Origin: Candidatus Poribacteria bacterium
Lineage (GTDB): Bacteria; Poribacteria; WGA-4E; JAJDTR01
Assembly (NCBI GenBank): GCA_965222225.1
Contig: CBDCTK010000002.1
Span: 5,408,001-5,472,000 of the forward strand
Reading direction: 5' to 3'
DNA: 64,000 nucleotides
Below are positions 39,805-63,999 of the stretch, piece by piece; within the stretch, counting starts at the first letter, position 1, and every line of letters begins with the position of its first letter. Under the pieces are notes generated by a model. It did no database searches. It had not been told where the DNA came from and saw only the letters and a program-made list of their open reading frames with translations. Both the position numbers and the translations under genes were made by a program.

Positions 39805-42800
39805 TTATATTCCATCATGGTCGAAATGCTCGGTAAAAACCGTCCACGTCTTCGTGAGGGTATCATACCGCGTTAAACCACCATGGGTGCCTATCCAAAC
39901 AAAGTCGCCATCCATCGCTAGTGATAGAATACCGTTGTGCGGTAATCCATCCGCCATGGTAAGAATTGAAAACTCAGCCGTTGCCTTAGTCAACACGGTG
40001 ACTCCATTATCGAATGTGCCGAACCAAATCTCCGTGTCGTTGATGGCGATTGACGTAATCAGATCAGATCCTAGTCCATCCTTCTTTTTATAAACGTGCC
40101 AAATCCCGGTAGCTGTGTCGTAAACAGTCGTGCCATGGCCACTGCCGAACCATACGCGAGTCTTATCAACACCGATGCAACTCACCTCCTGGCTGGCAAG
40201 ACCGTCCCTCTGAGTAAAGGTTCGCCACGTTCTCTCGCTAAAATCATAGACAGAAACTCCCGTCTTGGTTCCAATCCAGATGCGATTGTTGTTGACCGCC
40301 AAGCAGCGGACATCATCGTTTTCCAGACTCTTGGTGTACTTCTGAGCAACTGTTGGGGTGATTTCGATTGCGGCGTTGTAGGTTTCCCAAGCGTTTGGAT
40401 CATCGGAGAAGATATTGTGCTTGCTGACGCCGTTCATTGTGCCAATCCAGACATCGGTACGGTTCTCGCCAATCGCGCGGATGTCCGCACTCGGCAAATG
40501 GTTCTCCTCCGTATATGCGTCGAACCTGTCGGCGATTCTGTCGTACCTGCCAACGCCGCCTTCGGTAGCAATCCAGACATAGCGTTTGCCAACCGATAAA
40601 TCAACGACATTATTGTCGACCAATTCGCTGATTTCGGCCTCTTTTGTGTCACCTACTTCTTCCTCCGATTCGTCAGTCGCCCTCTCGTTGTTTTGGTCCT
40701 CCTTCATCACCTTCTCGAAGTGCCGCCAAGTGTCATATTTCTTATCGTAACGACCCAATCCACGCTGTGTACCTGCCCAGACATACCGTTCGTCAACGGC
40801 TACGGCCACAACGCGACGACTCGCTAACGTCTCTTGCTTGACGAAGGTCGCCCACGTGTCGTTCTCCTTGTTATAGCGGCTCAAGCCATGCGCTGAGCCA
40901 ACCCACACGTACTCTGGATCCACCTTGATGCCATAATTGCGAATCTCATTGCTCGCCAAACCGTCCTCGGTTCCATAAGCTAACCATGCCCCTGAGGGTT
41001 CGTAATACCTGAGAACGCCGTCCTCATGTGTACCAACCCAGAAGGTATCGCCATCTTCCGCCACTGCTTCCACTCGGCCCTGACCGGTCACACCGTCCGC
41101 GCGGGTGAACGACGTCCATGTCTCTGTAGCGCGATTGCACCGATCAATGCCGTTCCACCCGTAGCTCCAGATGTACCGTTCGCCAATATGCCCGGAGTTT
41201 GGGCGTGCTGCGCGCACTCCCATCCGCTCATTATAGATAATCCACATATCTAGATTGGCGCGGTAACGACTTACACCATGGAGTTCGCGGCCTGAAATCC
41301 ATGAATAAGCGCTATCGCCGCCAGTCCAAACATCCTCTCCATCAGCGACGATCCAGCGTCCAAATCGGGAGGCTAGGCCGTGGGCTTCGGTGTACGCTTT
41401 CCACGTTTTCGTGCGCCAATCGTATCTCCGGATGCCATGTTCACCGGTTCCGAACCAAACATAATCATTCGTACACGCAACCGACTCAACCCGTCCTCCG
41501 TCTCCCGGCTCGACCACGTAGAATGTCTCCCATTGTCCAGTTATCTTATCGTAATGTGCCCCGCCTCCGCCTCGCAACGAGGCCCAAATCCCCCCAGATT
41601 GGTCAATCGCAACATGTTCAGCCCGACGATTAAGTGGCAGATGCTTCCAAGTGTCAGATCGCTTATTGTATTGAAGCATGCCGTTATCGGTCGTGATCCA
41701 GACATCTTCCTCCCCTACCGCTATACGTGGCACGTCTGTGATTAGTGAAGGATTGCCAGAGAGAGGTAGAGATTCCTTAGTATAGGTCATCCAAGTATCC
41801 GTCCGCCGATCGAACCTCAGAATTGCTCCATTTGGAGACGCGGACCAGTTGAGAACCCAAAAGTAATCGCCGTCTTTTGCCATCCAACGAATATCATCTT
41901 CCTGCAAAATGTCCACGCCATGATAAGGTTTGTGGCGATCCCATCGCCTTGTCGATTCATCCAGAATGGTCAGCCCCGCGACCGTACCGAAAAACACTCG
42001 GTTGCCACCGATAGCAATACTGTGTACATTGTTATGTAACAGCCCCTCCGACTCCATTGTGAGTATTTGCTGCACCTTAAGGTTGTCCTCAAAGCGACCA
42101 ACTCCGCCGGGGGTACCAATCCACATCACGTCATTATCTACGACAATAGACCTCACATTCGGGTTTGGTAACCCTTCTGTAATGTGAAGCGGGGTGTTGT
42201 CTTTAATTACCCATAATCCGTTTCGTGTACCCACAAGCAATTCACCATTCGAGCCTTGTGCTAACGTGTTAACGTAATCGCGAATCGTCGGATATGGTTC
42301 AAACGCTTCCGTCTCTGACGCTTTGCGATACAGCCCCGCCGTTGTCCCAGCCCAGAGGTCTTTGCCAAGCCGGAGCGTAGAGGTCACCCACCAATCTTCG
42401 AGATGGGATTTGACGCGCGGTTGGTGATTCTCAGGTGTCAACTGTAGTACATTGAGTCCGCTTCGTGTGGCAGCCCACACCTCTCCCTGGAAGATGCTCA
42501 CGTTTGTTACAAAATCGTCCGTCAATCCATTGCGCTGCGTGAAGAACCTCCAACGATTGTCTTGGATGACTCCTAGCCCGAGAGATGTGCCAATCCATGC
42601 TACACTGTTTTTGCGATCAACCGCAACAGAAGTGATGTAGTTTGTGACTAAGCCATTTGCTTTGGTATACGTCGTCCAATCGTTCTCGATCGGGTCGTAA
42701 CGGCTGAGTCCTCGGTTCGTACCAATCCATAGCGCGGTTCCTGACCAAGCTAAGTCATGAATCTGAGTCGATGCGAGTCTGTCTTTTCTAGAATACCAGC

Positions 42801-43866
42801 GCCATGAGGTGTTCGACTTGTCAAATCTTCCCAACCCGCCTTCGGCGGTACCAATCCAAATGTATTGACCACTACTCATCAACTCGGTGATATGGTCGCT
42901 AATTAGCCCTTCCTCTGCCGTGTATTTGAGCCAGGTATCAACTGTTGTTAGGTAACGTCGAATGCCACGGTCGGAAGAACCGAACCAAACATTATCGCCG
43001 TCAACGACAATTGTTTTAATGTAGTCGCTCTCTAGTACCGTTGTTTTGTCGTGGCTTTCGGTAAAGGCCTGATGAGCGATACTGAACCTGCTTACGCCCG
43101 AATTTCTTGTACCAACCCAAACTGCATCTGGACTGAGTGCAATGCAAACCACACTGTTGTCGACCAATCCCTCTTCTTTAGTGTATGTGTTCCAAGCGTC
43201 CTTGGCTTTATCGTAGCGCCTTAATCCGCCCTCCGTACCGAACCAAACATACTCGGTATCCGCTGCAATGGCGGTAATCGCATTAAGCCCTTCCTTCTCT
43301 TTTTCGATCTGCGACGCCCAGGCACCTATGGAGGAATCGTAGCGCGAAATGCCATTTTCGGTTCCGATCCAGACGTAGTGTCCATCAATTGCAACTGCGT
43401 TGACGTGATTGTGAGTCAAGCCATCACGTTTCTGAAATTTTCGCCACTTCTTAGTTTCAGCATTATAGTGGCTAAGCCCGATGTGCGTACCGATCCAAAC
43501 ATTCACTCCATCGACGGCGATGTCGGTGACATCGTCAGAAATGAGACCGTCTTCTCGATCTAACTTGTCCCAGCGATTATCCGCCTCGTGATAGACACTC
43601 ACGCCACGGTCTGTTCCAACCCAAATGTTCCCGTGGCTGGCATAGATGCAGCGGACTTTATCGCTGACCAATTGTTTCTCGGTTATTGCTGTAGTAATTG
43701 CTTTTTGCTCGATAACCGACCGCTGCTCCTGCCGATCGACTTGAGTTGCACTGCAGGCAGTCAAGCACAGCAGAAGTGCGAAGATTGCGAAACCCGATGC
43801 ATAAAACATAATGCATGATTTATATTGCGCTAGTTTGTTCATTTTGTAGTGAAAGGAGGTTCCCAA
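39805..43866 (-). CDS. Giant multi-beta-propeller lipoprotein (regulator-propeller repeats), paralog C
   Basis: Many 'GL..N.V..IA.DG..VWIGT..GLSRYD' repeats; lipobox LTAC; no kinase or TM domain. True start is probably slightly downstream. Confidence 0.85.
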   Translation of the reverse strand: MGTSFHYKMNKLAQYKSCIMFYASGFAIFALLLCLTACSATQVDRQEQRSVIEQKAITTAITEKQLVSDKVRCIYASHGNIWVGTDRGVSVYHEADNRWDKLDREDGLISDDVTDIAVDGVNVWIGTHIGLSHYNAETKKWRKFQKRDGLTHNHVNAVAIDGHYVWIGTENGISRYDSSIGAWASQIEKEKEGLNAITAIAADTEYVWFGTEGGLRRYDKAKDAWNTYTKEEGLVDNSVVCIALSPDAVWVGTRNSGVSRFSIAHQAFTESHDKTTVLESDYIKTIVVDGDNVWFGSSDRGIRRYLTTVDTWLKYTAEEGLISDHITELMSSGQYIWIGTAEGGLGRFDKSNTSWRWYSRKDRLASTQIHDLAWSGTALWIGTNRGLSRYDPIENDWTTYTKANGLVTNYITSVAVDRKNSVAWIGTSLGLGVIQDNRWRFFTQRNGLTDDFVTNVSIFQGEVWAATRSGLNVLQLTPENHQPRVKSHLEDWWVTSTLRLGKDLWAGTTAGLYRKASETEAFEPYPTIRDYVNTLAQGSNGELLVGTRNGLWVIKDNTPLHITEGLPNPNVRSIVVDNDVMWIGTPGGVGRFEDNLKVQQILTMESEGLLHNNVHSIAIGGNRVFFGTVAGLTILDESTRRWDRHKPYHGVDILQEDDIRWMAKDGDYFWVLNWSASPNGAILRFDRRTDTWMTYTKESLPLSGNPSLITDVPRIAVGEEDVWITTDNGMLQYNKRSDTWKHLPLNRRAEHVAIDQSGGIWASLRGGGGAHYDKITGQWETFYVVEPGDGGRVESVACTNDYVWFGTGEHGIRRYDWRTKTWKAYTEAHGLASRFGRWIVADGEDVWTGGDSAYSWISGRELHGVSRYRANLDMWIIYNERMGVRAARPNSGHIGERYIWSYGWNGIDRCNRATETWTSFTRADGVTGQGRVEAVAEDGDTFWVGTHEDGVLRYYEPSGAWLAYGTEDGLASNEIRNYGIKVDPEYVWVGSAHGLSRYNKENDTWATFVKQETLASRRVVAVAVDERYVWAGTQRGLGRYDKKYDTWRHFEKVMKEDQNNERATDESEEEVGDTKEAEISELVDNNVVDLSVGKRYVWIATEGGVGRYDRIADRFDAYTEENHLPSADIRAIGENRTDVWIGTMNGVSKHNIFSDDPNAWETYNAAIEITPTVAQKYTKSLENDDVRCLAVNNNRIWIGTKTGVSVYDFSERTWRTFTQRDGLASQEVSCIGVDKTRVWFGSGHGTTVYDTATGIWHVYKKKDGLGSDLITSIAINDTEIWFGTFDNGVTVLTKATAEFSILTMADGLPHNGILSLAMDGDFVWIGTHGGLTRYDTLTKTWTVFTEHFDHDGI

Positions 43867-44901: not shown

Positions 44902-46150
44902 CGGAATTAGTAGCTTGTAGCTTTTAGACTGACGACAAACATAAAACTTGGTACCCTGTCGTAAATCTTTTCGTCACACGTAGATGTCCATAGTGACTAT
45001 TCTTCTCGTAGGAGTTTGCTATGGACATTTTGAATCTTATGAAAGAGTTTCCAAATCAAGAATCTTGTCTCAGATTTATAGAGGAAAAACGTTGGAAGGA
45101 CGGTGTTTGCTGTATCCACTGTGGCAGTGAAAAAGTTGGACGCAAGAACAAAAACGACATTACTACTGGTTGGAATTGCTACGATTGTGAATCTAGCTTT
45201 TCGGCTACAGCAGGAACCATCTTCCATGGTACCAAGATACCTCTCCAGAAATGGTTTTTGGCTATCTCAATTCTTTCCAATGCCAAGAAAAGCATATCGA
45301 GTTGTCAGCTTGCTCGTGACTTGGACATGAATCAAAAGTCCGCTTGGTATATGGCAATGCGCCTCCGTGAGAAAATGAGTGATAGTGATGAATTGCTGAA
45401 AGGGATAGTTGAAGCGGACGAAACCTATGTCGGCGGCAAACCCAGAGCAAAATCTAAGAGAGGTAGAGGCACAAATAAATCTCCCGTCATCGGCGTAGTC
45501 GAGAGAGGCGGTCGGGTGGTTGCTAAATTCATGAAGGTTCTATCTGGTGAAAATATCAGAGAATTCATCCTTAGCAATGTCTCACCCGATGAGTCTATTC
45601 TTATGACTGATGAATTTCGCTCTTACAATAGTCTGGACGAAGATATCGAAAGACATGTTATCCATCACCAAGAGAGATATGTTTCTGAGGACGGCGTAAC
45701 TCACACCAACACCATCGAGTCGTTTTGGGCTTGTGTCAAGAGGTCATTCTACGGAACGCATCATCACTACAGCAAGAAGTGGCTGCCACTGTATATCATG
45801 GAGTCTTGCTGGAAATATAATCGCAGAAAAGATGATGAGATTTTCATAAGATTTTTTGATGAATGCTTCACCTGAGCCACATGAATTGTTTGGCTATCGG
45901 TATATTCTGTCAACGACAACATCATGGTGTGCTGAAAATCCCATAGTGTTGGAAATTAAAATCCCGCAGATAACCCGCAATGCTCCCGCGAGCATGTACA
46001 AACGCTTGGTCAACATGATATGCCTCCATTTCTCTCTTATAGAGATGTATTTTAGTGTGAATCAAGATTCCGAACACTGTCTAAAATGATTGTACATTAA
46101 GAAGAGAAAAGCAAGCAAATCGACCAAAAAGCAGTTAACTACTAAGTCCC
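44902..46150 (+). mobile_element. IS1595-family insertion sequence (1249 bp)
   Basis: 8-bp target duplication TTCTGTTT (44894-44901 and 46151-46158). Imperfect TIRs: CGGAATTAGTAGCT versus GGGACTTAGTAGTT (reverse complement of the right end). Confidence 0.92.
45021..45875 (+). CDS. IS1595-family DDE transposase
   Basis: Zn ribbon CIHC...CYDC, VEADETYVGG, TDE, HTNTIESFW. Confidence 0.93.
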   Translation: MDILNLMKEFPNQESCLRFIEEKRWKDGVCCIHCGSEKVGRKNKNDITTGWNCYDCESSFSATAGTIFHGTKIPLQKWFLAISILSNAKKSISSCQLARDLDMNQKSAWYMAMRLREKMSDSDELLKGIVEADETYVGGKPRAKSKRGRGTNKSPVIGVVERGGRVVAKFMKVLSGENIREFILSNVSPDESILMTDEFRSYNSLDEDIERHVIHHQERYVSEDGVTHTNTIESFWACVKRSFYGTHHHYSKKWLPLYIMESCWKYNRRKDDEIFIRFFDECFT

Positions 46151-49100
46151 TTCTGTTTTCTTGTCATAACGAGACAATCCTCCATCGCTACCGACCCAAA
46201 CGTAAGCATCGTCCACCGCCATTGAACCCTCAGCCAGCCCGTTGCTTGCAAGTCCTGTTTCATAGTTCAAAAATCTCCAGTCCTTGCTGGCTTTGTTATA
46301 ACGTCCAATCCCGGCTCCTTCGGTCGCCAACCAGATACTATCCGATGTCTCTATAAGTTGCCTTGGAGTCCCAAACCACTCGTTGTAATTGTTTTTACGG
46401 CTAGTTCTAGGCGTCTTTAATTCTGACCACGATCGCGTGCTATAATGATATTTTGATGCGATGGGGTCTCCCCAGTCAAGCCAAGCGTAAAGCATCCAAA
46501 AGCCGTCAATCCCGGGGTGAATGCCAAAGGTTACGCGTGAAGTGGCCCGGTGTTCGGAGATGATTTCCCACTCTTCGATGCGCCGACTGTACCGAGAGGC
46601 GTCACCCCAAGCTGTTATCCAGACATAATCGTCATCAATGAAAATATCGTTAGTTTCGCTGTGGCCCAAGCCGTCTCGCTGAGAAAAAGTTTCCCACTCC
46701 TCGGTTGATTTGTCAAACCGTTTGATTCCCTCCCAAGCGGTAGAAACCCAAACATATTCAGAATCGACAGCAATCGCACCCAAGGTGCTCCAAACAGCGC
46801 TTGGTGAGATTTCCCAATGCTGCCAACGGTCTTCCTCCATAGAAAGGCGACCAACCACGCCTCCAATGTGGAGCGTCCAAATATCCTTACCATCAGGTGT
46901 GATACTCCAAACCTCATTGTTTGGCAAGCCATCTTGCGTCGAGTAATGACGCCATGTGTCACTGAGTTTGTTGTAACGCAAAACCCCAGCGTTGGTGCTA
47001 AACCAAACAGCTTTATCATCGGTCGTAATCCCGTGGACAAGGGTAATTGGTGGCGCATTTGGTTGGAGTGGAAGGTCATCCTTACTGAAGAAACGGAATC
47101 TCTCAGTGACCCGATTGTGCTGACCGATTGCGCCTTCTGTTGTTTTCTTCCAGTTACCGAACCAGATAAAATCTCCGTCTTCTTGAAGATGGACGACTCG
47201 ATTGGCGTGTAGCACCTCGGTAGTTCTCGACGCAACGTGCTTTGTCCACCGTTGGGTCGTCTTGTTGAAACGACAGACACCACCTATTGTCCCAATCCAC
47301 ACGTCAGTCTCAGTGATTGAAATGGATGTGACATTATTCGCCGGAAGCCCGCCATTCGTGTTCTCTCGCGTGTAGACTGTCCATCTGTCAGCTTTCCAAT
47401 CGTATCTCCCTAATCCGTCCGGAGTACCAAGCCAGATTTCTTCACCGCCGGTCTTGACTGCGACAACGTTGGCGTGAGCCATAGGATGTGTCAAGTGTGA
47501 AACCTGAAACGGAAGGTCCTCGTCGAAGCAAGCTCCCGATTCTCCTAGCGGCGTACCTAGCATCGCTTCTGTCAACGAACGAAGCGATTTCGTGACCTGT
47601 GGCTGTGGATCCGATAAATCTTTCAATTTCACTAAACCCGATCTTGTTCCAACCCATAGCGAGTCACCGTTAATTGAAATTGCATTAACCCAGTTTTCAG
47701 GCAATCCATCCTTCCTGTTGAGCTTAGCGGCGGTTTCGGTTAACCTATCGTAATAGACAAGTCCGTCTGGGGTTGCAATCCAAATGACCTCGCCAGAGAG
47801 TCGAATATCGTTTATCCAACCGAGGTTTGCGAGTTTGCGGGGATGTGAATTCCACGAACCCATAAGCAAATTGTACGTTGAAAGTCCAGTTCTTGTTCCA
47901 ATCCACAGTTGACTATGAAGCGGATCCCACGCAAGGCATGTGACGAAATTATCGGCCAATCCATTCTTGGTGTTATAGAATTGCCAATTCGCATTTCCAT
48001 GACGCACTCCTAGCCCTTTTGGTGTGCCCACCCAGAGAGAGTTATCACTTTCCGCCACGATAGTGATGTAGTTATCGGCTAATCCGTCCGTTTTGCTAAT
48101 CGTACGCCAACCGAGTGAAGATTTGTCGCCTGTGTATTCGTTGAGACCATCCCGTGTTCCAACCCAAACCTTCGATGTCGTAGCAAGAAGGCTCTTTACA
48201 TCATTGTCGCTGAGCGCCCGAACTTCCCCGTAACTCGTCCACTCTTCACTTTGAAGATCGTATCGTGCCACGCCGTGTTCGTGCGTACCGAACCACACTA
48301 CGTTTCCATCGGCTGCGATTGATGTGACATGATTGGAGGGAAGACCATCCGCTGTTGAATACTGTCGCCATGCATTGACTGTTAAGATATATCGCTGTAC
48401 ACCGCTGTCAGCCATACCAATCCAAAGTGAGGTGCCATCCATCGCCAGAACGCGAATCTGATCGCTTGTTAGTCGATCTCTCTTGGTGTATGTACGTACA
48501 AACTCGGAATTCCGCACATCATATAGACTGATTCCTTTGTTCTCTGTACCGAACCAAACTGCATCTTCATTAGCTGCGATAGCGCTTACATGATTGTCAA
48601 CGAGGCCGCTTTCCCGGTCGTAGTTGCTCCACGAATCAGTGAGCTTGTCGAATCTTGATACCCCGGTTTCAGTTGCGACCCAGACGTAGCCCGCATCAAC
48701 CGCTATCTTTTTCACGTTATCGCCAGCGAGTCCGTCCGCCTTTTGCTTTCGCGCCCAAGTGTTTGTTTCTTTATCGTAGCGTGAGAGCCCCTTCGGCGTT
48801 CCAAACCAAACAAACCTTGAGTCAATGGCAATACAAGTCACGATGCGATCGGCTAATCCATCATGAGGCATGTAGCGGCTCCATTCGTCTGTTGCGGTAT
48901 TGTATCGACTGACGCCTCCACTTGTGCCGACCCAGACATCCTCACCATCCAGTGCAATCGCTAACACATCATTGTTGAGAAGTCCATCCATAATTGTGAA
49001 GTTTTTCCATTGTCGTTCGACTTTGTCATAGCAGCTAACACCTCGGCCCGTGCCAACCCACACATAACGAGAATTCATCGCTAACGACGAGATATGATCG

Positions 49101-49506
49101 CTCAAGAGAGGATTTGTCGATGTCGTTCCCGTGCCCTCAAGAAACCGATTGGAAGGTGACGCGGGTGTGTGGATAGCGTAACTAAGCACGGTTATGAGCA
49201 AAATAAGGCGAAACACGGTACTTGCGTGACTTGTCATGGGAGTTCCTTCTCATTGTGCTAAGGGATGTGAGAACTAAAGGTATTTCTCAGCGCGGCGGAT
49301 GGTATCGCCATCAACATTGGTGTGTTAAGATTTGCCTTGGTTGATTGGAAGTTGATTTGCCCACACGGAAAGGAATGATGCGCCGAGGCGGTTTCACCCG
49401 AATGTATCGAGCTCAAAGGACAGAGAGCTTGTCCGCCAACGCAAAGAGCATTTGCACCATTGGCATGTCCCATGGCGGTTTTCTTTTCAAGGCATGCTGG
49501 GGCAAC

Positions 49507-52500
49507 TCACTGGCGATCTTCTTCCTGATCAAAATGCCGAGTAAAGATTGTCCAGGTGTCGGTAAGGATATCGTACCGACTCAGCCCCCGCGCCGTTCCT
49601 ATCCAGAGAAAATCTTCGTCCATAGCAATATCGAACACGCGATTATGACTTAATCCATCGGTCCGCGTGAAGTGTTTCCATGCCTGTGTTTCCTTGTTAT
49701 AATGCAGTAAGCCGTGGTCAAACGTTCCAAACCACACATCGTCATCTGCAGCGACAATCTGAGTGACTTGGTTAATAGCGAGACCGTTGGCTCGGGTAAA
49801 GGAAGACCACTCTTTCGTCTTCGTATTTAATCGGCTAACACCGCCCTCTGTTCCAAACCAGACCGATTCACCGTCAATGCATATACTGCTAATCTCATCA
49901 CCGAGTAGTCCATCGTCCTGTTTGTAGGTTATCCAAGTTCTGCGCCGCAAGTCGTGTTGGCTAACTCCTCTTTCCGTGCCTACCCAGACGTAGCGTGTGC
50001 CGACAGCAATACTTCTTACACGATTGTCAACGAGACTTTCGGCGTATTCTGGAGAGAGCGACATCGTGTCTACCTCATCAGCACGCGCGAATATCTCCCA
50101 AGCATTGGCATCTTCCGACAACGTGTTGTATTTGCTGACACCATGGTCGGACCCAACCCACAGCGTCCGTCTGCCTACCGCCGCTACCTTCACATGGTTT
50201 GTTGGCAAACCGTTCTTCTCGTCGTACTTATCCGTCCAATGGGCCCACTTATCAAATCGCCTGACACCTTTTCCACTGACAATCCACACATATTTATCGT
50301 CGACGACAAGGTCCGTCACGAGATCGTGATCGATAGTCCGATCGTGCGCGACAGTCAGCCAAATGTCGTTTTCTTTATCGTAACGGCTTGCGCCTTGATC
50401 AGTTCCGCAGTAAATATAACGTGAGTCGACAGCAACCGACCGAATGACATCAGAAGGCAGGGATCGGCTGCCGGTATAAACCGTCCAAATTTCCTTTTTC
50501 AAATCATAGCGACTGATTCCACGGTTACTGCCTGCCCAAACGTACTCATCATCGGCGCGAAGTGTATGGTCATGAACTGTGTTGCTTAACAATCCATCCT
50601 CCGTCGAAAATACCGTCCATGATGATGAGGCTTTATCGAACCGACTAACGCCGTGTTCCTCCGCCCCAAACCATACCCCGCTAGGCGTTTCCTGTACATC
50701 GTGGAAGTTGTTGCCGACTGTTTGAGGATGCCCCCGGAACACTTGCCAGGTCCGGTTTTTCTTGTGGTACCCACTTACCGGCACGGTTCCAGGGTCCTCG
50801 TTCCACTCATCTTGATGAAGTACCCACAGATAATCTATGCCGGAACTTAACTCTCTAATCCCCGCCTTTGCCAAACCCCGCTTGCTATCAATGATAGTCC
50901 AACGATCGGTTTTGGCATCGTATTGGCACAATTCCCACCCGTAAGCCCACACATCGTCCTCGGTAGCGACGATGTATCCAATAGGGGCCAAACCATCAGC
51001 AGTGGTATATCGTTTCCAGGAGTCGGTTTTTTTATCATAGCGCAGTACGCCGTCATGCTGTGCGGGAATCCAAACATAGCGAGTATTCGCGGCAAAGCGA
51101 GTCTGATGCCACTTGTTAGCGAGATCCTTTGTCGCTGCCATATGTGTTTCCCACGTGTCGGAAGCTAGTCGATAACGGCAAATGCGCCCATCTCGCAGAC
51201 CAATCCATACATCATCCCCATCAACAAGCACTGACCGAGACTTGTTACTCGGCATCCCATCTTTTGTCGTATAATGTCGCCACGTGTCGGAGTCTTTGGA
51301 GTACGCCAAAATTCCGCTCTCGGTGGAAAACCAAACACGATCGTCTGCCACATCAAGCCAGTCGATTAAATCAATAGGCGGAGCATCAATCGCTTGGACA
51401 TCTTCGTTCATGTAGTGGGTCCACGTCCCCGTTCGTTTGTCGTACCGAACGATATTTCCATTGGAAGTGTGCATCCACGTTACAAACCATACCCAATCGC
51501 CGTCCAACGCCGTGTGCTGTATATGGCTGTGACGTAGTACGTCGGTCTCTTCCCTTGCACGAATCGCAGTCCACGAATTCTCTTTCGTGTCCAACTGCCC
51601 TAAGCCGCCAATGGTCCCCAGCCAGACTTTATCTCCGAAGGTGATAACATCGCGGATATTTTCATGTCCCATTACTGCACCCGGCTGTGTCAGATCGAAA
51701 CGTTCCCACGACTTCGACGCTTTTGAATACTTGCCCAATCCGCGCGGCGTTCCCACCCAAACTGTGTTGTCGGCGATTGCAATTGCCCTCACATTATTGT
51801 TTGGCAATCCTTCCATTGTCGTAAAACTACGCCACCGATTGTCTTCCTTATCAAATTGGGTTAGCCCTTTCCGGGTACCGATCCAGACGATTTCACCATC
51901 AACCACTATTCGATTGACGCGATTGCTAATTAATCCGTCCGCTTCGGTATAGGATTTCACGATACCATTATTCGACGGCAATTGAGAAACACCGCGATCC
52001 GTCCCAACCCAGATAGAATCATCATCAAGGGCGATGCAACTCACCCAAAGGTTCCCAAAATCTTCATGGGTGTACCATTTACCGTCCGCCATGTCATACC
52101 AACACAATCCGCTTCGAGTACCAACCCATATCCTTTCATCCGCGACAACCACATCCTGTACGAAATCACCAGCAAGTCCATGCCTTTTCCGCCAAAACTT
52201 CCAGCGATTATCCTGATACCGCCCCAAGCCCTTGGCTGTCCCGATCCAAACGGCATCATCGGTCATGGCAATGGCGGTTACATAGTTTGTGATTAGTCCG
52301 TGGGCTTTGGTAAAAGTCTTCCATTCCCCAGAACACGAATCGAAACGGCTTAATCCCATCGCAGTTCCAATCCAGAAAACTCCGTCCCGCTGCACAATGG
52401 TCTTCACATTGTCGTTAATCAGACCTTCCGCTTTCCTTACAGTTGTCCAAAGTGCGTTGATCTTATCAAATCGAAGGACGCCATCCTCACGGGTACCGCA

Positions 52501-53442
52501 CCAGACATCGTCTCCATCTGGAACAATTGATGTAATATTCGCGGAGGACAAGCCGTCAACTAAACTATAATGAATCCACGTATCCACCGACTTGATGTAT
52601 CGTTGCACCCCCTCGTTTGCTGTGCCAATCCACACATACAATCCATCAATGACTATCCGGTTGATTTTGTTCGTCTTAAGCAGGCCATCTCGTGTAAGCG
52701 TCCTCACGAAGGCTTGATCTGTTTTGCTGTATAAACTGACACCGAAATTCGCGGTGCCAAACCAAACAAAATCCTCGTCAATAGCAATCGTTGTCACTTT
52801 ATCATCGGCTAAACCATCACTCTTGGTGAACTGTGTCCATGAGTCAATTTTCTTATCGTACCTTGATACGCCTTTATCAGTGGCAAACCAAACGTACTCC
52901 TCTTCAACGGCAATATCAATAATCTGATTGCTCGGCAAACCGCCATCATCCGTCGTCCTGAGTGCCCAAACGTCAATCGGCATATTGTATCTCGCCAAAC
53001 CTTTATCTGTGCCAAACCAAACATAATTCCCATCTACACTAACAGCCGTGATTCGATTACTCGGCAATCCGTTATCGCGATTATAAGTCGTCCATGCGCC
53101 GGTCGTAATCTTGAATTTGGAAATACCAGATTCCGTGCCAAACCAGATGCACTCACGATCAACAGCGATGCCCAAAACTTTATTGTTTGCGAGTCCATCT
53201 TGGACAGTATAGCTCATCCACCGATTCTCGCTTTTGATGAAACGGTTAATGCCTTTGTCTGTTGCCACCCAAATGTTATTCTTGTCTGCAGTGACATCGT
53301 GAATGCGATCGCTAAGTAACGCAAATTCCGCTGATACGCTAGCCGTCGCACTCACCGTGGGCGCCTGTTTGTTGGACTGAACAATGGTACAGCCAACAAG
53401 GACTGTAAATAGAATGGCGAACCAACATTTATTCAAAACCAT
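49507..53442 (-). CDS. Giant multi-beta-propeller lipoprotein, paralog A
   Basis: Same repeat type as paralogs B and C; lipobox LVGC; shares the S(D/E)DxNAWE insert with them. Confidence 0.88.
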   Translation of the reverse strand: MVLNKCWFAILFTVLVGCTIVQSNKQAPTVSATASVSAEFALLSDRIHDVTADKNNIWVATDKGINRFIKSENRWMSYTVQDGLANNKVLGIAVDRECIWFGTESGISKFKITTGAWTTYNRDNGLPSNRITAVSVDGNYVWFGTDKGLARYNMPIDVWALRTTDDGGLPSNQIIDIAVEEEYVWFATDKGVSRYDKKIDSWTQFTKSDGLADDKVTTIAIDEDFVWFGTANFGVSLYSKTDQAFVRTLTRDGLLKTNKINRIVIDGLYVWIGTANEGVQRYIKSVDTWIHYSLVDGLSSANITSIVPDGDDVWCGTREDGVLRFDKINALWTTVRKAEGLINDNVKTIVQRDGVFWIGTAMGLSRFDSCSGEWKTFTKAHGLITNYVTAIAMTDDAVWIGTAKGLGRYQDNRWKFWRKRHGLAGDFVQDVVVADERIWVGTRSGLCWYDMADGKWYTHEDFGNLWVSCIALDDDSIWVGTDRGVSQLPSNNGIVKSYTEADGLISNRVNRIVVDGEIVWIGTRKGLTQFDKEDNRWRSFTTMEGLPNNNVRAIAIADNTVWVGTPRGLGKYSKASKSWERFDLTQPGAVMGHENIRDVITFGDKVWLGTIGGLGQLDTKENSWTAIRAREETDVLRHSHIQHTALDGDWVWFVTWMHTSNGNIVRYDKRTGTWTHYMNEDVQAIDAPPIDLIDWLDVADDRVWFSTESGILAYSKDSDTWRHYTTKDGMPSNKSRSVLVDGDDVWIGLRDGRICRYRLASDTWETHMAATKDLANKWHQTRFAANTRYVWIPAQHDGVLRYDKKTDSWKRYTTADGLAPIGYIVATEDDVWAYGWELCQYDAKTDRWTIIDSKRGLAKAGIRELSSGIDYLWVLHQDEWNEDPGTVPVSGYHKKNRTWQVFRGHPQTVGNNFHDVQETPSGVWFGAEEHGVSRFDKASSSWTVFSTEDGLLSNTVHDHTLRADDEYVWAGSNRGISRYDLKKEIWTVYTGSRSLPSDVIRSVAVDSRYIYCGTDQGASRYDKENDIWLTVAHDRTIDHDLVTDLVVDDKYVWIVSGKGVRRFDKWAHWTDKYDEKNGLPTNHVKVAAVGRRTLWVGSDHGVSKYNTLSEDANAWEIFARADEVDTMSLSPEYAESLVDNRVRSIAVGTRYVWVGTERGVSQHDLRRRTWITYKQDDGLLGDEISSICIDGESVWFGTEGGVSRLNTKTKEWSSFTRANGLAINQVTQIVAADDDVWFGTFDHGLLHYNKETQAWKHFTRTDGLSHNRVFDIAMDEDFLWIGTARGLSRYDILTDTWTIFTRHFDQEEDRQ

Positions 53443-53561
53443 CGTTCCTAATCATTTATATCGAAAACGCGAAAAAATAATAACAAAAATCCTTAGTGAG
53501 GCGAAAGTTATATAGCGAAACTACCCGTCGTTGAGGTGCAAAACAGCGCTGTCTTTTCTCT

Positions 53562-55094
53562 TTAGGATTCTTGTCCTTCTTGTACAACGTAAATGTCCGC
53601 ATGAAAAGTGTTCGTGCTACCAGCCTTGCTGTCCAAACTTGTAGCCCCCAATTTAAAGAGCTGCCTTCGTTTGAAACCGTGAAAAATGTGTCCGGTTCCG
53701 CCGGGTGGAACATCCCAGGTTCCAGTCAGCGCCTCATCTGGAGATCTATCTGTAGTTAGGTCTGTGTGGCTATCAAACAATTCAAACGTACCGGCTGCGT
53801 CACCCCTGCCCACCTGTATCTTAATGTAGAGTATCCCGTCGTGTTCAAAAGGGGTCGTGTCTATTTCAACAGGCGTGTACTTCGGCGCGTCAGTGCCAGA
53901 GGCGCGAAAAGTGTGCAAAACCTCTTTCAACTTTCGTCCCAAACTGATGGGTTTTGCTTCTAAATTCAACAGACATTTTCCTTCAAACGCTTCTAGGGAA
54001 CGCCGTAGCAGCGTTAAGTAGGCTTCTGCCCTATTCCTGTATGGGAGCGCCATCTCCGGCTGATGCATAATAACCTCCGCCTCCGACGACAGCACCAGAA
54101 TGTCCACCGAATCCGTATAATTCTGTTGAAGTTTTGTCGCGACAAGACGGGCGCCATCCCCTTTCGCACCGCCCATCAGCTCTGGCAACTCCCTTAGGAG
54201 CACCCATGTGTTTACAAACTTCTCATTGAGCGTATTTATCACTTCTGAATTGGAGAACTGACCCGCCCTCAAGTATTTGGCGTTCGCTCAGCAGGATTCA
54301 TCGTCGAGTGGCCCCCAAACAAGGATTGCATGAATTGGGTGGCTCGTTGCCTTGGCAAGCGGAACGGCTTCTTCAAGCGGACGCCATTCAATCTCGGCGA
54401 ATTTGTAGAACCTCAATTCCAACGCTCTACGCGCTTCTTCCACCGTGATGGCGCCTTCCCACGCAATCCTGCCCCGGTCTTCGGCGACGGTGGCGAGAAG
54501 TTCCATGCGCGGCACAAAGACCATATCAACGCCTTCAAAGGCGCCGATGTCAACATTGCTATTCCGTGGTGGAAGATAGAGTGAGAACGCGCGAACTGTC
54601 CGTCTCTTCAGGTTAATCACTAATCGTCCCGCGAATTGCGATAAGATGTAACGAGATTTTCCCTCATCATCATTCAGCGAATTGGCGACCCGCCACGCCT
54701 CATAAGCATCACTTGACAGAACCAACTCCGCATGAATTCGGAATGCTATCTCCGCGTAATGTGACGAGATCGCGCGGAGACACGCGTAAGCACCTTCCTC
54801 GCCGTGATGTAGTGCTGTCGTTGCGCCCGAGTGAAACTGGTGAAGGAACGGAACAACCCCATGCGAATCGAGTTGCCACACGTCCCCTACCTCTACATCC
54901 GACGATGGAAGAAACACTTTGAAGGCGTCTATGCCGTATTCTTTGATTGGGTGGCTGGGCGAAAAATTGAACAATTCAACGTGTATTGGTGAGGCCTTGT
55001 GTAGATTAAACGCGGAATCTGCAATCGCATCCCAATGTGCCGCCACCTGCACGCTAGTTGAACACTGAAGCGCATCAGTTAAATCAATTTTCAT
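53562..55094 (-). CDS. Selenoprotein N (SELENON)-like protein, ~510 aa, with in-frame UGA (Sec) at 54290-54288
   Basis: ORFs 54288..55130 and 53562..54272 share a frame: WGPLDDESC-TGA-ANAKYLRAG. Collinear SELENON-like motifs lie on both sides. GGAGG RBS before ATG 55094. Confidence 0.85.
54250..54287 (-). promoter_or_regulatory. Candidate bacterial SECIS element
   Basis: 15 nt after the UGA: stem UUGAGGGC / GUUCUCCAA with apical GGGUCA, resembling the GGUC apex of the E. coli fdhF SECIS. Confidence 0.6.
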
Positions 55095-55669
55095 TTTACC
55101 TCCAGGCAAAACTACCGTTGCTCGATTCATCAGGACTGGAACGTTGTATTTTCCAGCAATGGATTGACGAATTGATTGGTTTTGGACGTCCGACTCTTAG
55201 TAAGTGGAATACTGCTGAAGAGGGGTACGGTCCTATCTGCGCTGTTTATCCGATTGAGTGGTGGTAAATGCTATTTCACCCTACGATATCAAAGCGCCGT
55301 CAGCTATTGCACTGAATCCTACGCGGCAAAATTTCCATGCCCGCAGCAAGGGACTCTGCGCATGAACTTTCAATCTCTAACTATAACACAATTTCGGATG
55401 CACTTTTCGGTGGATTTGCAGGCACAATTCAATGGCTTGAGAGGGTTTTGGCTCGCGGAATAAAAAGTGTTTGTGTGGCGTACCGGCAGGGATCTTGCTA
55501 ATTTTAATCAGCGTGAAGGCTTGGGCGTTATGAATGTTGTAGGGAGATTGATTTGCTTCCAAGAATCCGGACTCGCCCTATAGTCATGGGAAGGAATAGG
55601 TCATGAGCGAAGTCCTTCGGAGAATCCGAATACATAATTCCGAGTTGTCCGAATCCCCAATAGCTGGAT

Positions 55670-61650: not shown

Positions 61651-63999
61651 TTAATTTCCCGAGATCGCCAGCTTTGTGAGATCACCAACAACATTTAACT
61701 TAATGGCAATTGAATTCAATAGTGCCAAGCGGTTGAATCGGAGTTCAGCGTTTTCAGACATTACAAGGACTTCATCGAAAAACCGATCAATTGCTGGCTG
61801 GAGGTATCCCAGATGAGTAAGTAGCTGGGCATAAGCATGTTTATCAACGGCATTCTGAAGTTTCGGTTCAGCTTTCGCTATCGCAGCCGCCAATTCAATC
61901 TCAGCCACATCTTGCAAGAGATTGGGATTAACTTCGGTCGGAGGAGTATCCGGTAAGATTCGTAAAACGCGATTCAAGGCAGGGTATATACTGTTGAAGT
62001 CATGTTCATCTCGAAATGCGGCAATGACTTCCGCTCGTTTCAAAACGTCTATGATGTCAAGCTCGCCGGTCGCGAGTACCATATCAAGAATGTCCGGTTC
62101 ATAGCCCTTGGCCTGCAACAGGACTTCAATTCGCCCCTCAAAGAACTCAAGTAAAGCGGACTTCGTATCTTCCGCCAACTCTACTCGATACAGTCTGACG
62201 GACTCTTCGATTATGGACCCGAGCGGAAGGTGGAATTTCTTTTCCAACAGAATACGTGCCACTCCAATTGCTTGGCGCCTCAACGAATAGGGGTCCTGTG
62301 AACCCGTTGGTCGCTCATTGATGCCAAAGTAGCCGACCAAGGTATCAATTTTGTCCGCGATTGATAAGGTAACACCGGCATCCGTTTGAGGCAATGCTCC
62401 ATCGGCAGAGATAGGTTGATAATGTTCCTCAATGGCGAGCGCAACTTCGGGCGCCTCTTCAGAGTTCTGAGCGTAATACTTTCCTACGATACCTTGCAGA
62501 GACGGGAACTCAATCACCATGAGCGTGGTCAAATCCGCTTTGCAAAGTTGTGCTGCTCGAACCGCGTGCTTCTTTGAAACCTCGGAAAACCCACCTTGTG
62601 AGGCATTCCGACCAATCTCATCCATGATGAAACCGGCAAGTGCATCTAATCGTTTGGCTTTGTCTAGCAACGAGCCAAGTTTGGCATGGAAAACGACGTC
62701 ACGCAACCGATCGACCTTGTCCGACAGGAGTGTCTTTTGATCTTCCCGGTAGAAAAACTCGGCATCATTTAATCTTGCGTGAAGAACGCGTTCATTGCCA
62801 TGCCTTACACCATCGTGATTCCCATCAGTTCCGTTGGAAATGATGATAAACTTCGCCTTGAGTTTGCCGTCACTTGACCACATCGGAAAGTAACGTTGAT
62901 AGCTTTTCATCGGCGTAATTAAGACTTCGGTTGGCAAAGAGAGGTGAGACTTACTAAAGCTTCCGACAATCGGCTGAGGATTTTCGACGAGATAAGTAAC
63001 GGTATTCAACAACTCATAATCAATCTCCACTAGGCATCCTTCAGCTTCCAAGATCTCGGTCACTTGTCGCTCAATCCTATTCCGTCGTTCCTCCTGATCT
63101 ACGACGACATTTATTTTCCGAAGCTGCTTGATGTAACTCTCTAAGGACGCGTCCGTTAATTCAATGGGTTCAGGATTGAGAGAACGATGTCCGTAAGTGC
63201 GCCGTCCAGACCGAAGTGTGTCAAGTTGAAAATCAACTACCCGATCGCCGAAGAGGACAACCAACCAGCGAATGGGACGAGCAAACCGCAACTTGTCCCA
63301 GCGCATGGTCTTGGGGAAGCTCAACGATTGAATCCATATGGGAAGGATTTCCTTTAAGAATTCTATGGCAGGACGCCCTTTTTCTAGCTTGGAAGACGCT
63401 ACATATTCTCCGCGTTCCGTCTCAACAATCTTTAAATCCGTGACATCAACTCCCTGCGTTTTCGCAAACCCGATAGCGGCCTTCGTTGGTCCTCCATTCT
63501 CATCGTAGGCAACTCGCCTCGGTGGACCAACTACCTCGGACACATCGTCGCTTTGAGTGGTTGCCAACCCTTTGACACAGAGTGTTAAACGGCGCGGGGT
63601 TGCTAATGTGTGTATTTCCTCAAATGAAAGACGATGCGTCTCAAGAGAGTTCGACGCAATATTTCTAAGTTGTTCCAATGCGGGGGCAAGATAACCGGTT
63701 GGAATCTCTTCCGTGCCAATTTCAAACAACAGATCCGCCGATTCATCGGATGTCACTGTCGCCTTCTTCGGTTCTTCCTCTATGGCATCTTCTTGTGTTC
63801 TCGGTGCCCAGCGATTCAATAGAGGATGTCCCATCTTCTCGCGTTGCTCTACATATGCGCGAGCGGTCTGCTGTGCTAGGCGCCGTACTCGTTCGATATA
63901 GTTGACACGCTCCGTGACACTGATAACCCCCCGAGTGTCAAGCATATTGAAAGTATGCGAGCATTTGAGCACATAATCAGTTCCGGGTAATACGAGTCC
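61651..63999 (-). CDS. glyQS: Fused glycine-tRNA ligase alpha/beta (5' part outside window)
   Basis: The alpha C-terminus [21 protein letters not shown] is in frame with the beta subunit ([35 protein letters not shown]). Confidence 0.92.

Follow-up and report, generated by a model that had tools for sequence, protein, structure and literature searches.

A probable selenocysteine-containing homologue of selenoprotein N in Candidatus Poribacteria

Introduction

When two open reading frames (ORFs) follow one another in a single frame with little more than a TGA between them, are they two genes, one broken gene or a single gene whose TGA is translated? This question is raised by a locus of Candidatus Poribacteria within a stretch of 64,000 nucleotides (assembly GCA_965222225.1, contig CBDCTK010000002.1, forward-strand positions 5,408,001 to 5,472,000), here called the window and numbered from its first letter. 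Its minus strand holds a 280-codon ORF (55130..54291) and a 236-codon ORF (54272..53562), separated by a single TGA (54290..54288) followed by five sense codons (A N A K Y). An earlier note on this DNA proposed that they encode a bacterial homologue of selenoprotein N (SelN; gene SELENON or SEPN1) in which UGA specifies selenocysteine (Sec). Because the product is homologous to SelN, the genome has Sec machinery, the TGA is conserved among relatives, a hairpin follows it and the downstream frame is under purifying selection, the locus is very probably a genuine selenoprotein gene and a member of a large SelN-like family of bacteria, as far as sequences can tell. The fuller explanation, in which UGA 281 is read as Sec under the direction of the hairpin and forms a Cys-Sec redox pair, is one that we consider likely and hold with good confidence.

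Results and Discussion

One reading frame across the TGA

Reading through the TGA yields a product of 522 amino acids (P0001) with U281 in the context ...WGPLDDESC-U-ANAKYLRAGQF.... The description of two in-frame ORFs split by TGA and five sense codons, made previously from the letters alone, is correct and the peptide quoted with it is exact. These five codons precede the earliest possible start codon of the 236-codon ORF. The features at the centre of the argument are:

53562..55130, minus strand: SelN-like selenoprotein gene (very probable), 522 codons and TAA (frame reading, start conservation, ratio of nonsynonymous to synonymous substitution rates, dN/dS)
54288..54290, minus strand: in-frame TGA, predicted to be read as selenocysteine U281 (TGA kept across related loci)
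54291..54293, minus strand: TGC for Cys280, putative partner of Sec in a C-U redox pair (C280 column invariant in alignments A1 and A2)

Two start codons are candidates, the ATG at 55130 and a second ATG at 55094 (M13, MKIDL). Since alignments of relatives mostly begin at M13, the true start may be 55094, and that ATG may be the more likely of the two. The extent given earlier, 53562-55094, took this second ATG as its limit; it stands as one of two possible extents, the frame having a further ATG at 55130.

Homology to vertebrate selenoprotein N

BLASTP aligned query residues 61-356 of the read-through product with SelN of Pan paniscus (P0277) over 355 columns, with 28% identity and an E-value of 3e-39. 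The same alignment places C280-U281 on ...DDQSC.. of the primate protein, an entry that is garbled at two residues of the Sec site. Motifs pair in the same order (query/P0277): GAYACLRAIS/GAVACLTAIS, FRIHAE/FRIHAE, QFAG/QFTG, NVD/NVD and PRMEL/PQMEL. The earlier note had cited both the upstream motifs and the flanks of the SELENON Sec site; the former align in order with this real primate SelN and the latter are matched by it. Whether the product resembles SELENON at all had been left to a profile comparison, and we find that the sequence homology is strong.

A phmmer search of 1.84 billion representative proteins matched a SelN-family protein of wombat (P0224, E 6.6e-23). Relatives of P0224 are named Selenoprotein N in UniRef and NCBI, and among the 120 listed of 309 all named rows are from vertebrates. 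At the Sec site of these 120 vertebrate entries, 11 end in ...SC, 37 jump to SGR and one reads WG, and 60 fall outside the pattern used for reading the site. Such breaks and ends in vertebrate gene models are the effect that an in-frame UGA is expected to have on gene callers. For P0144, a bacterial relative with Cys in place of Sec, the nearest Atlas cluster is 'Selenoprotein N' of chordates (score 0.93), and the next two clusters are bacterial hypothetical proteins labelled Planctomycetota. Passages of PMC12839072 give SCUG as the redox motif of human SelN and place Sec within it, and passages of PMC7474598 describe SELENON as a redox partner of SERCA2 with a calcium-sensing function.

Selenocysteine machinery and genetic code

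The genome encodes the machinery that such a gene would need. Genes for selA (601 bits), selB (343 bits) and tRNA-Sec (76 bits) are neighbours at C2:1590238-1593758, and ARAGORN reports a tRNA-SeC with anticodon TCA. The selD gene (364 bits; G000 C2:2933348-2934274, L010, outside the window) carries one in-frame TGA of its own in the context ...ECAG-U-ASKL..., followed by a hairpin with a GGG loop that starts 9 nucleotides (nt) past its UGA, at nt 13 from the U. Since selD has an in-frame TGA, this genome makes at least one other selenoprotein. The presence of selA, selB, selC and selD, which had been proposed as a check, is thus complete, with selD itself Sec-containing. Among 121 sampled genomes of the phylum, selA was found in 118. 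TGA also terminates 439 of the 1318 open frames of at least 400 codons in this genome, and is an ordinary stop here, not a reassigned codon.

Conservation of the UGA site in a large family

The search of 1.84 billion proteins returned 609 matches at E <=1e-3 (clusters at 50% identity), 268 at E <=1e-10 and 54 at E <=1e-30. Among 268 proteins, comprising the query and database matches, 156 fit a motif pattern and 112 fall outside it; 152 of the 156 end exactly at the Cys, and four, including the query, continue. To judge from these sequences, the ending of 152 proteins at this Cys is far beyond chance. Scanning one genome per species yielded 280 relatives. Locus-level counts refer to the best 80 of them, 77 titled Poribacteria and three 'uncultured bacterium'. 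The Sec site reads TGA in 78 of the 80, TGG in L072 and, in the broken copy L103, TGT with a deletion; 11 further copies in the flanks of these loci also have TGA.

Across the phylum, 95 of 121 genomes have a match at E <=1e-10, with 834 matches in total and up to about 19 per genome, and TGA occupies the site in 148 of the 150 matches listed. Each SelN copy has exactly one TGA, which adjoins the active-site Cys, and this includes the five copies of our genome. The second of these is 63% identical to the gene studied here and has no C-terminal domain. A tandem trio (C2:2763738-2767592, L023-L026, outside the window) carries SCUGSGK motifs and hairpins of the type called class B below; in the middle copy the N-terminal part is out of frame with the rest, owing to a frameshift or an assembly error.

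Cys replaces Sec (C-C) in P0132, P0144, P0150, P0157, P0172, P0007 and P0193, and as a TGC codon in L108. Full-length single-gene Cys forms are P0132, P0144, P0150, P0157 and P0007. Conservation of UGA or Cys at this site in bacterial homologues, for which a search had been suggested, is therefore found, and the concern that the two halves might occur as separate genes in relatives is answered by the existence of fused Cys forms. Within the orthologous group of P0024, Sec has been replaced by Gly, not Cys (L113-L116, L118, L119, L124-L126): among 17 relatives that are 70-87% identical, eight have TGA and nine have no stop, the codon, where a motif pattern located it, being GGA in four and GGC in four. 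L125 has lost the Cys as well (S-G). Genetic code 25 (TGA = Gly) was considered for the Gly at the Sec site in database proteins and rejected, the codon being GGA or GGC. The range of the family outside Poribacteria is represented by the Planctomycetota labels of the Atlas only.

Translation beyond the UGA

Against five orthologues, dN/dS is 0.07-0.25 upstream of the UGA, 0.18-0.29 over residues 282-390 and 0.17-0.35 across the C-terminal domain. These ratios indicate purifying selection on the frame beyond the TGA. Protein-level conservation also extends to the five codons that separate the TGA from the earliest potential start. Codon +3, which precedes any possible restart site, encodes a Gly that is 98% conserved by varying codons (GGC 38, GGT 16, GGA 10). 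RNA contigs from four metatranscriptome runs of two studies cover both sides of the TGA with 95-100% likeness. None of them spans the TGA by 31 letters on each side and DNA carry-over is possible, so that these contigs show neither read-through nor its absence.

A hairpin 3' of the UGA

A short hairpin that resembles a bacterial selenocysteine insertion sequence (SECIS) follows the UGA within the coding sequence:

54253..54270, minus strand: putative SECIS-like hairpin, nt 21-38 from the U of UGA, GAGGGC / loop GGGUCA / GUUCUC

In the family the hairpin is 18-22 nt long, mostly with a GGUC loop, and typically starts 17 nt past the UGA; counted with the U of UGA as 1, the stem starts at nt 17-22 in all 87 unique sequences. 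Two classes can be told apart. Class A, the common one, reads GAGGGCG-GGUC-CGCUCUC. Class B reads GAGGGC-AGGU/AGUU-GYYYUC, with its 3' arm two bases closer and in another codon register. Over an alignment of 79 rows, 92.2% of cells are paired, compared with 38.7-74.9% when partner columns are slid, and none of 500 shuffles reaches the observed pairing or covariation. Double changes occur in 14 cells of this alignment, four from G-C to C-G and ten from G-C to A-U. Within class B (16 rows) 100% of cells are paired, compared with 50-73% when slid.

Codon choice in the hairpin is also restricted. The codons below are given with their counts and with the entropy of the same amino acid elsewhere:

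TTG (Leu): 52 of 54; elsewhere 2.3 bits
GCG (Ala): 60 of 60; elsewhere 1.3 bits
GGT (Gly): 65 of 65; elsewhere 1.4-1.9 bits
CCG (Pro): 61 of 62; elsewhere 1.5 bits
CTC (Leu): 61 of 63; elsewhere 2.3 bits

Synonymous sites within the hairpin are, on these counts, nearly frozen. The mean energy of the observed hairpins is -10.4 kcal/mol, compared with -5.0 kcal/mol for synonymous recodings drawn with the codon usage of the genome; the real sequence has a median rank of 5 of 200, and for 45 of the 79 sequences five or fewer recodings are as stable.

The spacer codons +1 to +4 (54241..54296, minus strand) also show low synonymous change (GCG 44 of 45, AAC 39 of 42, AAA 63 of 65). In some copies nt 7-11 are able to pair beyond the 3' arm and may form a lower SECIS stem. 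The hairpin loop of L113-L115 is AACU and has no G. Minimum free energy folding of 82 nt around our own UGA gave nothing distinctive (z -0.77). Rfam has no model that covers the hairpin, and no Rfam SECIS was found in 53400..55300.

Protein architecture and proposed function

An AlphaFold2 model built from a 52-row alignment (mean predicted local distance difference test score, pLDDT, 87.4; predicted template modelling score, pTM, 0.76) has three parts:

54486..55058, minus strand: SelN-specific N-terminal beta-rich domain, residues about 25-215 (vertebrate SelN alignment; pLDDT mostly >90)
53976..54383, minus strand: predicted thioredoxin-like domain, residues about 250-385 (element order of the model and weak profile matches)
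53580..53936, minus strand: extra C-terminal all-beta domain, residues about 399-517 (model and alignment)

The last of these has no counterpart in vertebrate SelN, and many bacterial copies lack it; both alignment and model bear out the extra C-terminal domain of ~120 residues noticed previously. In the thioredoxin-like part the model gives the order beta-alpha-beta-alpha-beta-beta-alpha (E266-271, C280/U281, H282-289, E306-311, E342-347, E353-358, H367-382), with C280-U281 at the N-terminus of helix 282-289, the first helix of the unit. A family profile searched against the PDB reached only 3ira_A (E 0.049) and 2lst_A (E 0.37), both thioredoxin-like and both weak matches. On 3ira_A the first Cys of CxxC falls on the Sec column and the second on the conserved Gly three residues further on. 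Foldseek with the whole model found no thioredoxin in the top rows of the PDB; it gave weak generic matches of beta-sandwich or GOLD-like type (best E 6.4e-05), probably to the C-terminal domain, and named no fold. When the thioredoxin-like part was modelled as a domain from a single sequence, pLDDT was 41.

Neither this copy nor the other copies of this genome have a signal peptide; many relatives carry a signal peptide or a transmembrane (TM) helix. The earlier observation that a TM and EF-hand region is missing also holds: the conserved domain starts at about residue 25, there is no Pfam match and the vertebrate N-terminal extension has no counterpart. With neither a signal peptide nor a TM helix nor an EF-hand, this copy probably resides in the cytoplasm and is probably not regulated by calcium.

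From these observations we infer that one gene would produce a soluble three-domain SelN homologue in Candidatus Poribacteria. UGA 281 would be decoded as Sec by the SelB/Sec-tRNA(Sec) system, recruited, on comparative evidence, by the coding-sequence hairpin from 17 nt after the UGA. The adjacent Cys-Sec pair would then stand where a thioredoxin-like fold has its active-site motif. Such a product would most probably be a thiol/selenol oxidoreductase cycling through a selenenylsulfide, as has been proposed for the SCUG motif of human SELENON.

Other architectures within the family

The SelN-like domain also occurs in other combinations. P0007, P0060, P0089-P0098 and P0157 are fusions of an extracytoplasmic function (ECF) sigma-70 factor (PF07638, PF04542, PF08281), a hydrophobic segment and a SelN-like domain. 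Most of them stop at the UGA, and P0007 and P0157 have Cys in place of Sec. Many matches in the phylum are open frames of 630-700 amino acids of this type, and none is in our genome. One possibility is that such a fusion is a membrane-tethered sigma factor with a Sec or Cys redox sensor domain. In P0121, P0165 and P0146 the SelN N-terminal domain is interrupted by a long coiled-coil insert; P0121 and P0165 also have a caspase-like domain ahead of it (PF00656 is recorded for P0121) and no thioredoxin-like part. The C-terminal beta domain of our gene is duplicated in P0140, joined to other C-terminal extensions in P0119, and carried by two further database proteins, P0122 and P0125.

Weighing the explanations

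Several results weigh against reading this locus as a hairpin-directed selenoprotein gene with a Cys-Sec pair on a thioredoxin-like fold. Searches of Pfam, NCBIfam and PDB sequences with the single protein gave no match, the thioredoxin assignment comes from the model and the two weak profile matches, and selenium incorporation itself is supported by comparison only. For class B, 55 of 500 shuffles match the observed pairing. On the mixed 79-row alignment, RNAalifold missed the hairpin and gave a different, weak helix of four pairs; within each class it recovered the hairpin helices (-12.2 and -11.6 kcal/mol), and this is not an independent test, the classes being defined by letters inside the hairpin. 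We had expected forms with another codon at the site to lack the hairpin, and this was not borne out: it is kept in the TGG variant (-10.0 kcal/mol), in one Cys-form DNA (-7.6 kcal/mol) and in eight of eight variants with a Gly codon, so that this control did not discriminate. That Cys form came from a metagenome scan that gave two loci, one Sec and one Cys form, and its hairpin has 6 bp and a GGUC loop. Inertia is a possible reason, the variants being close to UGA forms.

If the TGA were a true stop, the locus would hold two separate genes or one gene broken by nonsense. The 152 database proteins that end at the Cys would fit this, as would separate C-terminal halves on record (P0122, P0125, P0158) and the lack of an RNA contig bridging the TGA by 31 letters on both sides. 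Yet this 'nonsense' codon stands at one and the same place in 78 of 80 loci and in each of the five paralogues, the five codons after it are conserved as protein, fused Cys and Gly forms exist, and purifying selection acts on the downstream part without a change of frame; we regard a true stop as the least probable reading of all. Only slightly less improbable is that UGA is read as Gly, Trp or Cys through a changed code or near-cognate read-through. This finds some footing in the P0024 group, with its eight TGA and nine stop-free members using GGA or GGC, and in the TGG of L072. It is hard to reconcile with a TGA that ends a third of long open frames, occurs once per gene and always beside the active-site Cys, and never stands at conserved Gly positions, which use GGN. 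The complete Sec machinery with a Sec-type selD, the Cys at the site in other lineages, the vertebrate gene models that break there and the literature placing Sec in SCUG also speak for Sec.

A third reading accepts the selenoprotein family and supposes that this copy is drifting, with a weakened SECIS, altered surroundings of the active site, and poor decoding or gene loss. Our hairpin is a weakened form of the 7-bp GGUC stem of the family (6 bp including two G.U; -6.7 kcal/mol against a median of -10.6) and the second weakest of 79, whereas the closest orthologue (L027, 87% identical) retains the 7-bp GGUC hairpin. Three substitutions, G+3A at the 98% conserved Gly, P+10Q (CCG to CAG) and L+11F (CUC to UUC), fall at positions that are 95-98% conserved in class A, and four other SelN copies are present in the genome. 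Because of the weak hairpin, the altered codons and the Ala at +3, this copy may be decoded less well or may be drifting. On the other side, the frame of 522 codons is whole, dN/dS against L027 is 0.25-0.35 in all three parts, six pairs and a G-rich loop are still in place with only 9 of 200 synonymous recodings as stable, and synteny with close relatives is retained. Drift is unlikely, if less so than the other two readings, and decoding of UGA 281 as Sec in a SelN-family protein remains the explanation that we favour.

Evolution and origin

The earlier note suggested that such a gene would bear on the origin of the family or on host-symbiont transfer. A quick maximum-likelihood tree (83 rows, 249 columns up to the Cys, unrooted, with eight vertebrates as the only eukaryotes and with long-branch artefacts possible) places the vertebrates in one long-branched clade with support 100. 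This clade lies inside a set of 28 rows, of which the other 20 are bacterial sequences with the motif in its DDQSC form. Fourteen rows from Poribacteria, this gene among them, make up a clade of their own (support 99) amid other bacterial sequences, and the P0024/P0123 pair is placed elsewhere. Transfer is not supported by this tree, in which vertebrates group with bacterial sequences other than those of Poribacteria. The tree is in keeping with a family that is broadly bacterial and may have given rise to the eukaryotic SelN gene.

Passages of PMC12936836 describe a hairpin directly 3' of the human Sec codon, the selenocysteine codon redefinition element (SRE), that resembles a bacterial SECIS, and passages of PMC3541580 and PMC12839072 give SRE mutations at G463, R466 and R469, with Sec at 462. 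These codons correspond to +1, +4 and +7, and the bacterial hairpin extends over codons +6 to +12 (L-R-x-G-x-L-S). It is tempting to speculate that SELENON came from the bacterial family, that the SRE is a relic SECIS and that the expansion in Poribacteria, including the ECF sigma fusions, forms a selenium-based redox-sensing network; we offer this combination as a conjecture with a small, though appreciable, chance of holding. If true, human disease mutations would lie in the relic of an ancestral bacterial SECIS.

Novelty and significance

A large bacterial SelN-like family is apparently undescribed in the literature. Full-text searches, whose scope did not extend to supplements and subscription journals, found no description of a bacterial SelN, and term searches returned no mention of one in PMC13188914, PMC9312934, PMC2398784, PMC13326102, PMC12839072, PMC7474598 and PMC7016017. 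The papers without such a mention include two reviews of prokaryotic selenoproteomes, a 2026 bacterial selenoprotein database paper, a 2026 SelN review and a paper on the evolution of the calcium system of the endoplasmic reticulum (ER), which treats SelN as a metazoan accretion. PMC7539508 has passages on algal SELENON (term search for SelenoN and SelN only), and PMC3541580, PMC12936836 and PMC5727441 were covered by the terms SelN/SEPN1 or SRE/SECIS only. The supplementary family lists of the selenoprotein database could include a bacterial SelN family. One record of the Joint Genome Institute (JGI) names the relative P0107 'selenoprotein N', so the resemblance has already been picked up by automatic pipelines.

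In humans, SELENON is a disease gene (SELENON-related myopathy) that, according to passages of PMC7474598, has no solved structure. Structure determination and enzymology would be tractable with a soluble bacterial homologue that has this Cys-Sec centre, or with one of its natural Cys forms. The SelN core domain would appear to be broadly bacterial rather than an animal invention, which has implications for where the eukaryotic gene, and possibly the SRE, came from. The family also appears to be a large group of selenoproteins that automatic annotation truncates at the UGA, and a strikingly selenium-dependent redox gene family in a phylum of sponge symbionts.

Gene neighbourhood

Genes around SelN encode Reg_prop and HEAT repeat proteins, a family 5 solute-binding protein and a protein of 108 amino acids. 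Seven of the 80 loci retain the synteny, and in every one of them the orthologue is at least 72% identical; the neighbouring genes offer no clue to function. A promoter scan gave 0 sites, and terminator-like sites were at chance level. Other features of the window are:

46142..49237, minus strand: 1031 amino acids, 'two component regulator propeller' repeat protein
49507..53442, minus strand: 1311 amino acids, also a 'two component regulator propeller' repeat protein; the two lie directly downstream of SelN, and the 1311-residue protein holds its position in five close relatives
39805..43866, minus strand: ORF of exactly 1353 amino acids
57495..61556, minus strand: ORF of exactly 1353 amino acids, made of HEAT/Arm repeats; it and the preceding ORF may be duplicates
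61651..63999, minus strand: glycyl-tRNA synthetase beta subunit whose N-terminus has the end of an alpha subunit (PF02091 positions 234-278); apparently a fused glyQS that extends past the window edge

Comparison with known systems

The bacterial protein is homologous to vertebrate SelN over the N-terminal beta-rich domain and the predicted thioredoxin-like domain, its predicted Sec follows the same Cys (SCUA here, SCUG in three paralogues of this genome and in human), and a putative RNA hairpin lies just 3' of the UGA, as the SRE does in human. It differs in that this copy has no cytosolic tail, TM helix or EF-hand, in its extra C-terminal beta domain and in the many paralogues per genome. 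Its recoding would be of the bacterial type, with no need for a SECIS in the 3' untranslated region, a eukaryotic element that one would not expect in bacteria, and the protein is probably cytoplasmic, whereas vertebrate SelN has type II ER membrane topology and resides in the ER lumen.

The hairpin is like the SECIS of the fdhF type in Escherichia coli in lying within the coding sequence shortly after the UGA and in having a small G/U apical loop, which in fdhF is GGUC. The stem begins 17 nt past the UGA in this family, and the fdhF spacing is shorter, about 11 nt. The adjacent Cys-Sec pair is reminiscent of the GCUG centre of thioredoxin reductase, which is thought to form a selenenylsulfide; passages of PMC12839072 compare SCUG with this C-terminal motif. 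However, the pair in the SelN-like protein would sit at the CxxC position of a thioredoxin-like fold, not in a flexible C-terminal tail, and this protein has no flavoprotein domain. The closest structures, 3ira_A ('conserved protein') and 2lst_A (thioredoxin), are the only PDB sequences reached by the family profile, and reached weakly; in the SelN family Gly takes the place of the second Cys of CxxC.

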